Shown in pieces: positions 17,645 to 32,659 of a DNA stretch of 45,532 nt. A program made the translations under genes and the position numbers. The DNA lies in IMG/VR virus record IMGVR_UViG_3300005805_000144, positions 1-45,532 of that record; one strand, written 5' to 3'. Numbering within the stretch: the first letter of the stretch is position 1; the number at the start of each line of letters is the position of its first letter. The notes below the pieces were generated by a model. The model searched no databases, was not told where the DNA came from, and was given only the letters and a program-made list of their open reading frames with translations. This stretch comes from a virus (Duplodnaviria > Caudoviricetes).

Positions 17645-19426
17645 ATGTTTAAATTAAAGAGCCTCACCGTGAAGAACTTTATGAGCGTGGGCAATCAAAC
17701 CCAAGCCGTAGACTTCGATAAGCAGCAGCTTACGCTGGTATTAGGGAGTAACCTGGATTTAGGTGGCGACGACACAGGTAGCAGGAATGGAACCGGTAAG
17801 ACTACCATAATCAACGCCCTTAGTTACGCCCTGTATGGTCAGGCTCTCACCAATATTCGCAAGGAAAACTTGATTAATAAAACCAACGGCAAAGCCATGT
17901 TGGTCACTGTTGAGTTTGAAAAAAGCGGCAACAGTTATCGTATCGAGCGCGGGCGTAAACCTAACTTGCTAAAACTGTTTGTCAACGATCAAGAACTAAC
18001 TGCGGGCGATCAGCACGACGACGACAGTCAGGGCGACAGCAGAGAAACGCAGAAAAGCATTGAACAAATGTTGGAAATGTCGCACACAATGTTCAAGCAT
18101 CTTGTTGCTCTAAACACCTATACAGAGCCGTTTTTGGCCATGGGTAGCGGAGATCAGCGAGAGATCATCGAGCAGTTACTAGGCATTACTATTCTCAGTG
18201 AGAAGGCGGAAGCTCTTAAAGAAGAAATTAAGATCAGTAAGGATAAAATACAGGCAGAAAACGCCAAGATCGAAGCAATTAAGGGTGCCAACGACAACGT
18301 ACAAAAGAGCATCGATAGCCTTAAAATAAAAAGTTCTGCTTGGGAGACTAAGAAGGAAAAGGACATTGCTGCCCTAGAATCTGCCATTGCTGAACTTAAA
18401 AATGTAGATATTGAAAAAGAATTAGCGCAACACGCAGCACTAAAAAAGTGGGAAGAAAACGATACTGCTCTACGAAATCTAACTAAGCAGAAAGCCACAT
18501 TGGAAAGTGCTGTGGTACAGGCTGAGAAAAGTCTCAATCGCTGTGCCAAGGAAGTTGAAAAACTTGAAAGCAGAACTTGCCCTGCCTGTGAGCAAAGCCT
18601 ACAGGATCACAAACACGCAGAAATGACTGCGTCAGCGACCAAGGCGTTGGAAGATGCTGCTGTTTACTACAACAAGGTCAATGGCGATTTAGAAGTAGTG
18701 AACAAGGCTGTTGCTGAAATTGGCAAACTGCCTCGCAAGCCTGCTACGTTCTACGACACTGAGGCAGAAGCACTGGGTCATAAAAACAATGTTGAAAATC
18801 TAGAACGCAATCTAGAGAACAAGAGAACAGAAAACAATCCCTATGATGAGCAGATTGAAGATTTGAAAAACACTGCCATACAGGAGATTAGTTGGGACGC
18901 TATTAATGCTGCTACCAAACTCAAAGACCATCAAGAGTTTTTGTACAAGCTCTTGACCAACAAGGACAGTTTCATCCGCAAGAAAATTATTGATCAAAAC
19001 CTAACCTACCTCAACAAGCGATTGAGTTATTATATCGATCGTTTGGGGTTACCTCATCGCGTGGTATTCCAAAATGATCTCACTGTGGAGATCACGCAGC
19101 TAGGCCAGGAACTAGATTTTGATAATCTCAGTCGCGGCGAACGCAACCGATTAATTTTAAGTTTAAGCTTTGCGTTCCGCGATGTTTGGGAAGGACTTTA
19201 CCAAAGTATTAATCTATTGTTTATTGACGAACTTATTGATGCTGGCATGGACAGTGCAGGTGTGGAAAGTGCTATTGCAGTTTTGAAAAAAATGGCCAGA
19301 GAGCGCAGCAAGAATATATATCTAATATCGCATAAGGACGAATTAGTTGGTAGAGTTAACAATGTACTAAGAGTGGTAAAAGAAAACGGATTTACCAGTT
19401 ATAGCAATTCTGTAGATTATGTCTAA
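17645..19426 (+). CDS. gp46: Recombination ATPase subunit, Rad50/SbcC-like
   Basis: VKNFMS, Walker A GSRNGTGKTT, coiled coil with zinc hook CPAC, signature LSRGE, Walker B LLFIDE, and ISH. Confidence 0.95.
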   Translation: MFKLKSLTVKNFMSVGNQTQAVDFDKQQLTLVLGSNLDLGGDDTGSRNGTGKTTIINALSYALYGQALTNIRKENLINKTNGKAMLVTVEFEKSGNSYRIERGRKPNLLKLFVNDQELTAGDQHDDDSQGDSRETQKSIEQMLEMSHTMFKHLVALNTYTEPFLAMGSGDQREIIEQLLGITILSEKAEALKEEIKISKDKIQAENAKIEAIKGANDNVQKSIDSLKIKSSAWETKKEKDIAALESAIAELKNVDIEKELAQHAALKKWEENDTALRNLTKQKATLESAVVQAEKSLNRCAKEVEKLESRTCPACEQSLQDHKHAEMTASATKALEDAAVYYNKVNGDLEVVNKAVAEIGKLPRKPATFYDTEAEALGHKNNVENLERNLENKRTENNPYDEQIEDLKNTAIQEISWDAINAATKLKDHQEFLYKLLTNKDSFIRKKIIDQNLTYLNKRLSYYIDRLGLPHRVVFQNDLTVEITQLGQELDFDNLSRGERNRLILSLSFAFRDVWEGLYQSINLLFIDELIDAGMDSAGVESAIAVLKKMARERSKNIYLISHKDELVGRVNNVLRVVKENGFTSYSNSVDYV

Positions 19427-19757
19427 AGCTCTAGATGAATACAAATTGGCATATTCAGAATATATAGATCATGCTGTACTTGTACATAACTATCATCTAG
19501 CGTTTATTAAGCATGGGGGCGGGGACACAGGAGCTGGACTACGCCGATCATTGCGTAAAATGCGAGAACTTGAAACCAAATTGGCTAGACTCAGTAAAGT
19601 AGCTTATAAGGAATTTCAAGCAGATAGAAAAGAATTACGGCAAAAACGCCGTGAAACCTATGAGCGTTGGAAACGAGAGAATCCAAAGCCTAAGGGAAGA
19701 CCAAAAGGAAGTAAAACAAATGTCAAACACAACAGAACAGATGAAAGCAGCTCTTGA
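19419..19757 (+). CDS. Small basic protein, possibly a diverged Hc1-like protein with an AT-hook-like motif
   Basis: Overlaps the gp46 stop. FIKHGGGDTGAGLRRSLRKMRELETKL loosely parallels the next ORF. C-terminal PKPKGRPKGSK. Confidence 0.55.
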   Translation: MSKALDEYKLAYSEYIDHAVLVHNYHLAFIKHGGGDTGAGLRRSLRKMRELETKLARLSKVAYKEFQADRKELRQKRRETYERWKRENPKPKGRPKGSKTNVKHNRTDESSS

Positions 19758-19917
19758 AGCTTATCTAGTAGAAGACGCCAAATTTACTGGTGGTAACAAC
19801 GCGGCAGGAACTCGTGCTCGCAAGGCATTAGGCGAACTAGGCAAACTAGTCAAAGCTCGTCGCAATGAAATCACAGCAGAGAAGAATGCTCGCAAGGAAG
19901 CAAAGGCTGCTCAATAA
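19720..19917 (+). CDS. Histone H1-like nucleoid protein, Hc1 family
   Basis: 65 aa from ATG 19720 (AAGGA SD upstream). GNNAAGTRARKALGELGKLVKARR matches the Hc1 core GNKAAGTRARK. Confidence 0.78.
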   Translation: MSNTTEQMKAALEAYLVEDAKFTGGNNAAGTRARKALGELGKLVKARRNEITAEKNARKEAKAAQ

Positions 19918-19920
19918 CGA

Positions 19921-20364
19921 ATGTCTTGGATTTACCAAGGCACAGTTATAGATGAATTACCCGATGACTGTGTTGGTTTTGTTTATCTCATTACCAACAC
20001 AGTTTCGGGTCGAATGTATGTTGGCAAAAAATTAGCGAAATTTAGCAAAGTAAAATACAAAACTATAAAGCAAAAAAACGGCAAAAAGAAACGCAAAAAA
20101 ATCAAATACAAAATCAACAGCGATTGGCAAGATTATTACGGCAGCAGCGATGAACTATTAAGAGATGTCGCTAAACTAGGCAAAGACAAATTTACAAGAG
20201 AAATACTGCATTATTGTGCAAGTAAGGCTCTTACCTCGTACTTGGAAGCCAAAGAACAATTTGACAGAAAAGTATTAGAAAGCAACGAATATTACAACGG
20301 GCATATTCGAGTACGAGTACACGGCTCACATATTTTTAAAGGCAAGACACACACTAAAAGCTAG
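19921..20364 (+). CDS. Short stand-alone GIY-YIG (Seg-like) nuclease-fold protein
   Basis: GFVYLITN...YVGKK, SDWQDYYGSS, FTREIL, YLEAKEQF and YYNG, with a Lys-rich insert. Only 147 aa, with no C-terminal DNA-binding repeats. Confidence 0.85.
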   Translation: MSWIYQGTVIDELPDDCVGFVYLITNTVSGRMYVGKKLAKFSKVKYKTIKQKNGKKKRKKIKYKINSDWQDYYGSSDELLRDVAKLGKDKFTREILHYCASKALTSYLEAKEQFDRKVLESNEYYNGHIRVRVHGSHIFKGKTHTKS

Positions 20365-20712
20365 CATCGGCTAATGTCGGATGCCCTATAACCGTGGGAA
20401 TGCACGGGGACGGAATCTCTGCGGTGTACAGAGCACTCGACCACTACCCTACTGCAGGATGAGGATAGCAAACTGCCGCTATTTGGTTGTTTTAAAAGGA
20501 TTTAAAGGCTAAAAAGACAGGGTTTATATACCCTACGTTATGCTTAAAAGATAGTGTTTTTAGGTATAACCGCCGTCATATGAAGACGCTGCTCGTGGTA
20601 CCGGATGACCGCCACTGTAACGCAGTAACACTATACGACTGTTCAAACTCGGATAATGTTGTATTTTCGCCCGGCAACGGGCGAAGTACGGCCATTAAAT
20701 CTGGATAATATT
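20364..20712 (+). ncRNA. Candidate large structured non-coding RNA (unassigned)
   Basis: At least ten contiguous or nested helices with G-U pairs on the plus strand, a three-way junction, an 8-bp loop pseudoknot (20551-20558 with 20627-20634) and a GCAA tetraloop stem. No credible ORF. Ends are approximate. Confidence 0.7.
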
Positions 20713-20789
20713 AAAAACATCTTCGATGTTAAAAACGCGATGAGCGTAGCGAAGAGCAAACGAACGCAGTTCGTTTTTAAATTCAGTTG

Positions 20790-20797
20790 TATAAATA
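20790..20797 (+). promoter_or_regulatory. Late promoter TATAAATA
   Basis: Exact T4 late consensus, followed by AGGA (20811-20814) and ATG at 20824. Confidence 0.85.
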
Positions 20798-20823
20798 AAA
20801 TTGTTATTTTAGGAAATAAAATT

Positions 20824-21388: not shown

Positions 21389-21619
21389 TTAAAAGAACGG
21401 CAGTCCCGATTCTTTAGTTGTTTCTAAGTTTTCCTTAATTATTTCGCCAAGTACTAATCTATCGGAAAAGTCAAGCATATAGGCTTGCTCCAACGTTACA
21501 GAACCTCTCATATACCAAGCGATTTTATATAATTCTTTCTTTAAGGCTTTTGACTCATTTTCCATCTTTTGTACCTCTGCCTCTATTTCGGGCAGAGTCA
21601 TAGTCAAAAGCCTTGCGCG
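21389..21619 (-). CDS. -1 frame extension of the upstream chaperone (gpT-like; small gp51-like ORF)
   Basis: The -1 frame is open from the slippery site to the TAA at 21389 (RARLLTMTLPEIEAEVQKM...IAWYMRGSVTLEQAYML...). Its possible TTG/ATG starts are buried in a stem-loop. Confidence 0.75.
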   Translation of the reverse strand, partial: RARLLTMTLPEIEAEVQKMENESKALKKELYKIAWYMRGSVTLEQAYMLDFSDRLVLGEIIKENLETTKESGLPFF

Positions 21620-21625
21620 AAAAAA
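21543..21625 (-). promoter_or_regulatory. Programmed -1 ribosomal frameshift signal
   Basis: In-frame T-TTT-TTC heptamer (21625-21619), 4-nt spacer, then a perfect 13-bp stem (21602-21614 with 21543-21555) enclosing a 7-bp hairpin (21591-21597 with 21575-21581). Confidence 0.78.
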
Positions 21626-31724: not shown

Positions 31725-31798
31725 CACTGTCGCTCATAAGTATTTTATGCAGTTCCCGCTGCGTAGATCATAGAACGATCATTTATAGGAGAAAACAA

Positions 31799-32659
31799 AT
31801 GGGACGTCCAATTCAAAAGAAATTTTTTGGTAATTTAAATACCCCTCCCGTAGGCGGAGAAGGAGTATCAGCAACTATTACAGTGACTAGTACAGGAACA
31901 GGATATTCACAAGGCTCAGTTGCAGTATTCAGCTCACCACAACTACCAGGCGGCGGAACTGCTGCAGGAACAGCAACAAAAACTGCTAACGGTGCTGGAA
32001 CATTTGGAGTAAGTGCTATTGTTCTAACTTCAGCAGGTTCTGGTTATACCAGTACTGCAACAGTTAACATAACAACTGCCACTGCTGTTTCAGTGACAGG
32101 TGCAGGTACCGGCACAGAAACACTAATTCATTGCACGACAACCGGCATTTTTGCTGGTATGGATGTAAGTGGAACAGGTGTAGGTGTAGGCGCCAAGGTA
32201 TCATCAGTAGCTACTGGTGTGGTTACAGTTAGCGTAGCTAATGCAAGCACAGTAACAGGAACATTGCTATTTGCCGACTATGGTACTGGTTTCTCAGCTA
32301 TCACATCGCTAACAGCAGTAACACAAAATGCAATCGCTGTATCTGCTTATCTTTCAACCGGTACTACTGCTTTATTGTCAGACATAGTAAAACAGGAAGC
32401 AAGCCGTAGATATCTAGTAAAGAATGCCGAAGGCGTAGGCCAATGCAAACTAGTTACAGCAGCTCCTAGCGCAGGTGAAATGACCATTGAAGCAACTGAT
32501 AGCAATGGCAGCACTTATTATGTTAAGAAATTAACAGCATTTAGAGCTGTATTAATTCAGAAGACTATGGTTGGTAGTTACGAATATGTAAACAATGCAG
32601 CAGCAGGTTGGACACTAGGTTCAGCATCTACTGGTATTGTAAGTATTGCATCAAACTAA
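31799..32659 (+). CDS. Thr/Gly/Ala-rich virion structural protein (possible head decoration or appendage)
   Basis: 286 aa, beta-rich, with GxGY motifs (STGTGYS, SAGSGYT). Has its own late promoter, strong SD and terminator. Confidence 0.65.
   Translation: MGRPIQKKFFGNLNTPPVGGEGVSATITVTSTGTGYSQGSVAVFSSPQLPGGGTAAGTATKTANGAGTFGVSAIVLTSAGSGYTSTATVNITTATAVSVTGAGTGTETLIHCTTTGIFAGMDVSGTGVGVGAKVSSVATGVVTVSVANASTVTGTLLFADYGTGFSAITSLTAVTQNAIAVSAYLSTGTTALLSDIVKQEASRRYLVKNAEGVGQCKLVTAAPSAGEMTIEATDSNGSTYYVKKLTAFRAVLIQKTMVGSYEYVNNAAAGWTLGSASTGIVSIASN

Follow-up and report, generated by a model that had tools for sequence, protein, structure and literature searches.

What does the widest gap in this phage DNA, directly behind the gene for a small nuclease, encode, and what might its product do? 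The window analyzed here, that is, the whole stretch of 45,532 nt (IMG/VR record IMGVR_UViG_3300005805_000144), is a section of a T4-like myophage that includes the genes for a late sigma factor, gp47, gp46, the baseplate hub, the portal, and the major capsid protein; complete records of close relatives of this phage measure 345 to 355 kb. At 459 nt (20365 to 20823), the gap exceeds any other between the open reading frames (ORFs) listed for the window, the second largest having 121 nt, in agreement with a first-pass annotation that had singled it out as the largest gap of a tightly packed genome. The same annotation had proposed that it holds a large pseudoknotted RNA, either a partner of the nuclease or a factor in replication priming. 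We found the RNA element in a fixed interval between gp46 and gp26, as a single copy per genome, in each of three complete T4-like phage genomes (345 to 355 kb). The genes leading up to it are as follows.

17645-19426, plus strand: gene for the gp46/SbcC recombination nuclease (phrog_77, E value of 2.7e-106; gene order in relatives), the left edge of the conserved interval.
19720-19917, plus strand: gene for an Hc1 histone-like protein (PF07432, E value of 1.8e-12), often found upstream in relatives.
19921-20364, plus strand: gene for a 147-amino-acid SegE-type GIY-YIG nuclease (PF19835 SegE_GIY-YIG, residues 3 to 129).

Elsewhere in the window, a TTTTTTC run on the minus strand (21607 to 21625) marks the end of the gp26-like gene and overlaps a TTG-start ORF (21389 to 21607), an arrangement compatible with a -1 frameshift. 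A freshwater-2 RNA (Rfam RF02980, 54.8 bits) lies on the plus strand at 31736 to 31801, ahead of the ORF at 31799.

Relatives of the element were collected by a protein search, which returned 80 viral loci, and with a pattern for the 3' part of the RNA, which returned 120 more; two RNA subfamily patterns match an estimated 1,400 and 280 IMG/VR stretches, respectively. The alignment of 74 window-type RNAs had a mean identity of 67% and an effective number of 68. Its top covarying pairs were mostly Watson-Crick pairs of the proposed stems, those of the junction stem CGACCA/TGGTTG scoring highest, and compensatory changes among the 74 relatives were found in GCATC/GATGC, CTCTG/CAGAG, CGACCA/TGGTTG, ATAGC/GCTAT, the long stem, GCTGC/GCAGT, and GTGG/CCAC. 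For the named structure, covariation over 57 RNAs was 0.414 versus 0.166 after shuffling (0 of 500 shuffles were as high), and controls in which the structure was slid along the alignment gave 0.05 to 0.17. Each of the pairing sequences first listed is indeed present in the window at its position, and the proposal of a structured RNA with covariation among relatives was borne out. Single-strand folding gave z scores of -2.3 on the plus strand and -3.1 on the minus strand and by itself leaves the strand open; the excess of G-U over A-C cells (133 versus 8) fixes the plus strand, as had been proposed. The parts of the RNA are listed below.

20359-20492, plus strand: 5' module with three hairpins and a three-way junction, corresponding to Rfam Polynucleobacter-1 (RF01718).
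20508-20570, plus strand: GGC-A-rich linker, variable hairpin (20519-20534), and 13-bp stem (20537-20549 with 20558-20570), the loop of which forms pseudoknot 1.
20551-20634, plus strand: pseudoknot 1 (20551-20557 with 20628-20634), with compensatory changes in 7 of 7 pairs and 98.7% of cells paired in 57 sequences.
20573-20626, plus strand: conserved core, with pseudoknot 2 (20575-20579 with 20605-20609) and the stems 20588-20592 with 20622-20626 and 20595-20598 with 20612-20615 (98.6%, 95.4%, and 100% paired, respectively).
20665-20686, plus strand: GCAA-capped hairpin between copies 1 and 2 of the repeat described below; its stem, first placed at 20666-20685, was 87% paired in relatives.

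The pseudoknot anticipated at 20551/20627 was therefore recovered, now with the boundaries given above. The long stem, first drawn with 14 bp (20537-20550 with 20557-20570), was supported as such, but it is better read with 13 bp, since 20557 covaries with 20628; the low score of its outer part (63.6%) stems from alignment shifts. Pseudoknot 2 (GTCAT/ATGAC) had not been described and competes with the CGG/CCG helix. Position 20577 covaries with 20607 (C-G in 41 and U-A in 33 of the 74 sequences), and the long-range helix GACGG/CCGTC (20409 with 20573), in which that position had been placed, showed no compensatory change. Some of the lesser elements fared only partly well: TTTAAA/TTTAAA exists in the window but is poorly kept (paired in only 43 to 82% of relatives, depending on the position), CCGTG/CACGG and AGGGT/ACCCT are present as stems of variable length, and CCT/AGG is confirmed in the window's own sequence only. 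A covariance model for the 3' part of the RNA (212 positions), trained on a set that included the window and two of the three complete genomes, detected a single copy both in the window and in each of these three genomes. It also hit 15 loci of other subfamilies (E values from 1e-12 to 0.6) and missed several that carry the repeat pair. By comparison of sequences, the element is identified as a conserved, single-copy, noncoding RNA gene of ca. 350 nt belonging to large T4-like phages, with a predicted double-pseudoknot core.

The first-pass annotation had recognized no known family and had called for a scan of Rfam. That judgment holds for part of the RNA only: the first 134 nt (20359 to 20492) matched RF01718, Polynucleobacter-1, over the full model (1 to 141) with 80.5 bits against a cutoff of 37, while the remainder had no significant Rfam match at either gathering or E-value thresholds. 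RF01718 also matched 12 of 20 relatives tested. The other RNA subfamilies have different 5' modules, and 14 of their loci gave no Rfam match at all; given that such loci are nevertheless matched by the core model, Polynucleobacter-1 appears to be one exchangeable 5' module on a common core. The original description lists the motif, with 16 representatives from Burkholderiales and fresh water or estuaries, as a possible cis-regulator (Weinberg et al. 2010, PMC2864571). The RF01718 model spans the 5' module only, whereas the double-pseudoknot core, the guide/target repeat, and the phage context lie outside it. Searches of the window with Rfam and ARAGORN returned no HEARO or omega RNA, known ribozyme, group I or II intron, or tmRNA.

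Downstream of the core, two short matched copies flank the GCAA-capped hairpin.

20647-20659, plus strand: copy 1, an ACTC flank followed by the guide-like GGATAATGT (20651-20659), delimited by repeat comparison across loci.
20699-20711, plus strand: copy 2, an ATCT flank followed by the target-like GGATAATAT (20703-20711), the minus strand of which would be the pairing partner.

The two GGATAAT copies bracketing the hairpin (20651 and 20703) had already been noticed in the window, and they proved to be matched in relatives as well. Their spacing varied continuously from 47 to 60 nt, with the hairpin in between and no helical steps, and no conserved third copy was found nearby. We first compared 100 distinct loci, left after near-duplicates and short loci had been dropped from the 120 fetched with the 3' pattern, in which three core positions were free. 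These three were identical between the copies in 100 of 100 loci, position 1 being A in 54 and G in 46 (chance identity at this position, 0.50). Since that pattern fixed the other core positions, a second one that does not touch the repeat was used. It yielded 79 distinct loci; in 58 of them, ACTC and ATCT allowed anchoring without any identity requirement. Positions 1 to 6 matched in 55 of these 58, and the other three had a TCTA flank and were mis-anchored. Across the sets there were 15 distinct matched 6-mers (for example, AGATAA, ACCACA, and GTCGGA), with further cores behind other flanks, so that the search for a variable guide-like segment, earlier recommended as a check, had a positive outcome in the core of copy 1. 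On a tree of 74 taxa built from the RNA scaffold with the repeats left out, position 1 changed at least 23 times (24.7 with shuffled labels), always in both copies, and independent pairs agreed on the switch of the copies in 10 of 10 cases (P = 0.002). A site composed of the genome's own ATCT and core occurred once in two of the complete genomes and twice in the third. The combination of a matched guide with two fixed, different flanks resembles the variable guide and target-adjacent motif of OMEGA systems. Guide position 6 was A in both copies in 58 of 58 anchored loci and in 146 of 146 loci of the larger set described next, 100 of which had it fixed by the pattern.

Mismatches between the copies ran in one direction. 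Over 146 loci, 46 of them protein-retrieved pairs called only when at least 5 of 7 positions matched, position 8 was G in copy 1 and A in copy 2 in 105 cases versus 1 of the reverse, and position 9 was T/C in 34 versus C/T in 7. At positions 7 to 10 of the 58-locus set, G/A and T/C together numbered 29, versus 2 for A/G and C/T. These are the mismatches that G-T and U-G wobble would allow if copy 1, as RNA, were paired to the minus strand of copy 2; part of the asymmetry at position 8 may stem from RNA folding, a cis pairing being predicted for G8 and Y9 of the guide. The matched copies are probably explained by base pairing or templated copying. The contrary reading is that nothing pairs: both copies would be bound by one and the same protein or act as symmetric tertiary motifs, and that partner or local gene conversion would keep them alike, with the RNA structural or regulatory and the nuclease a mere neighbor. 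The invariant position 6 would suit it, as would the occurrence of nuclease and RNA apart from each other, but the partner would have had to switch specificity at least 23 times and accept 15 cores, conversion would not have spared the adjoining invariant CTC/TCT difference, the one-way wobble would be left without a reason, and antiparallel pairing between the copies is weak. We consider it distinctly unlikely.

The same data could be read as the traces of a guided ribozyme, in which the pseudoknotted core would cut or ligate the guide-held strand at the invariant A6 or at the position-8 wobble. The invariant core has the size of a ribozyme, and both the constancy of A6 in the 58 anchored loci and the recurrence of the G wobble in distant subfamilies recall a docking helix. 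Against this, Rfam returned no ribozyme match, many loci have G-C or A-T in place of the wobble, and spliced or circular joints were not seen; of all the readings weighed here, this one seems to us the least likely.

Beyond copy 2, the noncoding region ends in a tail of small hairpins.

20717-20776, no strand assigned: DNA-type mini-hairpin tail with C(TTC)G at 20717-20729 (GAA on the minus strand), GCGTAGC at 20744-20750, and C(GCA)G at 20759-20776.
20790-20797, plus strand: TATAAATA, recognized by its sequence ahead of the next gene, of which we take it to be the T4-type late promoter.

Across loci, the loops that follow copy 2 were C(TTC)G, C(GTA)G, or C(GCA)G, and mini-hairpins were present in 84 of 99 tails versus 8 of 1,980 shuffles. 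Hairpins of the GNA/GNNA type reached 15.2 per kb in the tail versus 2.1 in the upstream genes, the loose motif being equally or more dense elsewhere in the genomes. The late promoter-like TATAAATA, or its form CATAAATA, was found in 19 of 99 tails. A review (PMC13037366) describes such mini-hairpins in N4 promoters, in ssiA, and in the primase sites of G4, St-1, and alpha3. A promoter of the RNA itself was looked for in loci with an inverted gene, since the RNA there cannot be read from its operon, and a sigma70-like sequence (TTGAC-N16-18-TA[TA]A) faced the RNA in 30 of 41 of them. As for expression, 5 RNA runs among the 24 listed contained part of the stretch, and all 5 were examined. In two studies, with near-identical strains, contigs crossed the stop codon into the RNA (20233 to 20507) and covered 20440 to 20598, fading by ca. 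20600 to 20677 (depth of 2 to 6 over the RNA and 7 to 27 upstream; the contigs are unstranded and may include DNA). The contigs of the remaining three runs stopped short of the RNA region. No spliced, circular, or copy-skipping joint was seen in the RNA contigs, coverage there being nil or low. GC skew in the three complete genomes followed the coding strand and showed no inflection at the element.

These transcription data bear on another possibility, namely, that the 3' end of the nascent RNA at copy 1 reanneals at copy 2, the polymerase thereby hopping the hairpin, terminating, or reinitiating; the element would then be a device for transcription control or RNA maturation and not an origin. 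Its pairing geometry is the same as that of a primer, the hybrid held during elongation has the length of the 7- to 9-nt match, the contigs fade near copy 1, and the tail hairpins with their T-runs could be terminators. Yet the large double-pseudoknot scaffold and the DNA-type triloops would be unexplained, and the expected joint was not seen in contigs whose coverage at that place was nil or low. We hold this mechanism to be very unlikely.

The protein encoded upstream belongs to phrog_447, a family labeled "NAD synthetase," and had matches in 458 phage records. Its fold match was I-TevI, Arg being absent at what we presume to be the position of I-TevI R27; Y22, Y33, G35, E109, and N126, the putative catalytic residues, were invariant, and 43 columns of the family were conserved at 95% or more. 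The score for TIGR01453 was far below its cutoff. As had been observed at first sight, there is no appended DNA-binding module (NUMOD, zinc finger, or HTH) of the kind found in homing endonucleases, PF19835 being the sole Pfam domain in the 147 residues, and the Lys-rich insert corresponds to a predicted two-strand hairpin (residues 40 to 66). The gene occurs in two main fixed contexts, after gp46 and after nrdB (154 distinct loci). A free-standing homing endonuclease was rejected on the grounds of the missing C-terminal module and this nonsporadic distribution. In 15 of 28 loci, the same RNA types are preceded by an unrelated PD-(D/E)XK nuclease, the RusA-like resolvase phrog_244, which alternates with the GIY-YIG gene. 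This alternation argues for a junction nuclease and against a homing enzyme, and the GIY-YIG protein is likely, judging from its family and setting, to act on branched DNA or Holliday junctions.

Several loci depart from the usual arrangement. In L121, a marine-type protein with a shorter PPL insert precedes a window-type RNA, so that gene and RNA appear to reassort. Unrelated cargo ORFs of 275 to 356 amino acids separate an intact nuclease gene from an intact RNA in L097, L098, L119, L123, L134, and L135 (no Pfam match in the three scanned), and in L316, L074, and L340 to L381 short repeats (CAGACACCAAGTC, at most 3 copies; AGGCA) lie just downstream of the gene, ahead of the RNA 5' end, possibly as processing or recombination marks. 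The clade of L545 to L555 (e.g., L545, 2500 to 4229) has a resolvase-like gene, an RNase H gene, and then a noncoding gap of ca. 670 nt with a strongly diverged, structured-looking RNA and degenerate repeats, matched by neither Rfam nor the covariance model; its RNase H was not found in the three complete genomes. The phage GIY-YIG gene was also found on two contigs (335 and 153 kb; L416 and L417) of a Marinimicrobia metagenome-assembled genome (record PBPT01), which are probably binned jumbo-phage DNA.

How closely, then, are nuclease and RNA tied? The nuclease gene preceded the RNA in 71 of 72 RNA-retrieved loci and lay within 1.5 kb of it in 46 of 52 loci of a second set (3 of 5 checked exceptions were 2 to 3 kb off), and the adjacency was kept across four layouts, including a joint inversion. 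Such constancy would be expected if the RNA bound the adjacent nuclease and directed a nick, through ATCT as a TAM-like motif, to copy 2 or to matching foreign DNA, with ACTC protecting the guide gene; a nick at copy 2 would serve to start replication, recombination, or packaging. The invariance of the putative catalytic residues, the refilling of the slot by another nuclease where the GIY-YIG gene is missing, and the fixed, unlike flanks around a matching core, which resemble TAM-based self-discrimination, speak for it. On the other hand, the same RNA subtypes go with nucleases of two unrelated folds, which a coevolved scaffold should forbid, and the adjacency may merely reflect gp46-gp26 synteny. 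Moreover, no RNA was detected near 19 GIY-YIG homologs beside nrdB, which fall at 5 places in the tree and show no diagnostic residue, and the complete genome of Melnitz encodes the protein with neither the ACTC/ATCT pair nor a model match (the model also misses several true members). No GIY-YIG residue predicted or tracked the guide core, proteins ca. 90% identical going with different guides. A guided nuclease particle is thus unlikely in our estimation, and the IscB/HEARO-like dedicated partnership first suggested is doubtful: the nuclease is exchangeable, occurs without detectable RNA, and has no guide-tracking residue. The neighboring nuclease is likely not a dedicated partner of the RNA.

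The reading that we prefer, tentatively and with slightly less than an even chance of its being right, is that of an R-loop or primer RNA, whose guide would pair with its own downstream DNA and so mark and prime a replication origin. It fits best because of the order of promoter, scaffold, guide, hairpin, target, and mini-hairpins and because a single copy sits beside recombination genes; replication priming, initially named as an alternative, now ranks first among the readings. The RNA would be transcribed as part of the gp46 operon or from an early-type promoter of its own, as the contigs and promoter matches indicate in part, and would fold into the structure that covaries among relatives. 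Its 7- to 9-nt guide, preceded by ACUC, would then pair with the complement of copy 2, preceded by ATCT, frequently with a G-T wobble at position 8, as identity covariation and one-way wobble suggest. By analogy with known origins, cleavage or termination near the guide might leave a 3' end from which the phage polymerase continues, and mini-hairpins on the strands thus opened might act as loading signals for primase or helicase. The adjacent enzyme, GIY-YIG or PD-(D/E)XK, would belong to the gp47-gp46 recombination operon and act as a structure-specific junction nuclease; it may recognize the R-loop by shape, not via a coevolved RNA interface, and trim or nick it. The RNase H gene between the resolvase-like gene and the diverged RNA in one closely related clade supports this primer model. 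Among the points that count against it, a hybrid of 7 to 9 bp is weak without help from a protein, and the RNase H case comes from a single clade, the RNA of which is unmatched by the model and has degenerate repeats. A more far-reaching proposal, which we regard as doubtful, is a new class of programmable system, an RNA-guided replication initiator of jumbo T4-like phages, in which a reprogrammable guide of 7 to 10 nt would open DNA behind ATCT, spare its own ACTC-flanked gene, and pass the R-loop to the adjacent junction nuclease (GIY-YIG or PD-(D/E)XK), a 147-amino-acid effector, thereby firing the phage origin.

The 5' third of the RNA is already known as an orphan Rfam motif; the architecture as a whole appears to be new, since it fails the defining tests of OMEGA systems, homing endonucleases, retrons, and known ribozymes. 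In the portions of the open-access literature accessible to us, neither the RNA in its full length nor its second pseudoknot, its matched repeat, or the exchange of the nuclease is described. A large RNA superfamily, common among jumbo phages that have not been cultured, thus has an orphan motif of 2010 as its 5' module. Should the guide/target rule hold, it would point to a replication origin of 350-kb T4-like phages and hint at what a widespread T4-like gene, often labeled "NAD synthetase," does; it would also represent a natural mode of RNA-guided DNA recognition that needs no Cas, OMEGA, or bridge protein.

In order to place the element among known systems, we compared it with four groups. 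Retron and DRT2 noncoding RNAs and the IS110 bridge RNA resemble it as structured RNAs with short repeats or guide loops beside an enzyme gene and with DNA-type hairpins on the 3' side. A retron or DRT assignment was rejected for want of a cognate reverse transcriptase (RVT_1 in 0 of 3 complete genomes; positive control in 3 of 14 genomes), and unlike the IS110 bridge RNA, the element has no recombinase adjacent in the window and a single guide segment was found. With OMEGA systems (IscB/HEARO and TnpB/omega RNA) it shares the order of a small nuclease gene and, directly behind it, a pseudoknotted RNA; the variable segment at the 3' side, a putative guide, and the fixed flank 5' of its putative target also fit their pattern. 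It differs from them in the nuclease fold (GIY-YIG or PD-(D/E)XK, not RuvC/HNH) and the absence of a HEARO match, in having one fixed copy per genome and not mobile multiple copies of the IS200/605 type, in the exchangeable nuclease, in a guide of only 7 to 10 nt, and in a target 50 bp from its own gene. Membership in OMEGA was rejected accordingly: there is no RuvC domain, no HEARO or omega RNA, and no mobility, and the RNA is not tied to one nuclease family. Next to Seg-type GIY-YIG enzymes, I-TevI, T4 endonuclease II, and Slx1, the protein is set apart by a catalytic domain alone with a basic beta-hairpin insert and by its strong conservation. ColE1 RNA II and the T4 origin transcripts form R-loops that prime replication, and the element resembles these origins in its long structured RNA upstream of the presumed start, in its putative RNA:DNA hybrid, in the hairpins on what would be the opened strands, and in the RNase H gene nearby in one clade. 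The RNA of ColE1 and T4 origins, however, stays on the template from which it was copied, whereas the short variable guide of the present element appears to jump to a second copy 47 to 60 nt downstream, behind a different flank, and to pair there.
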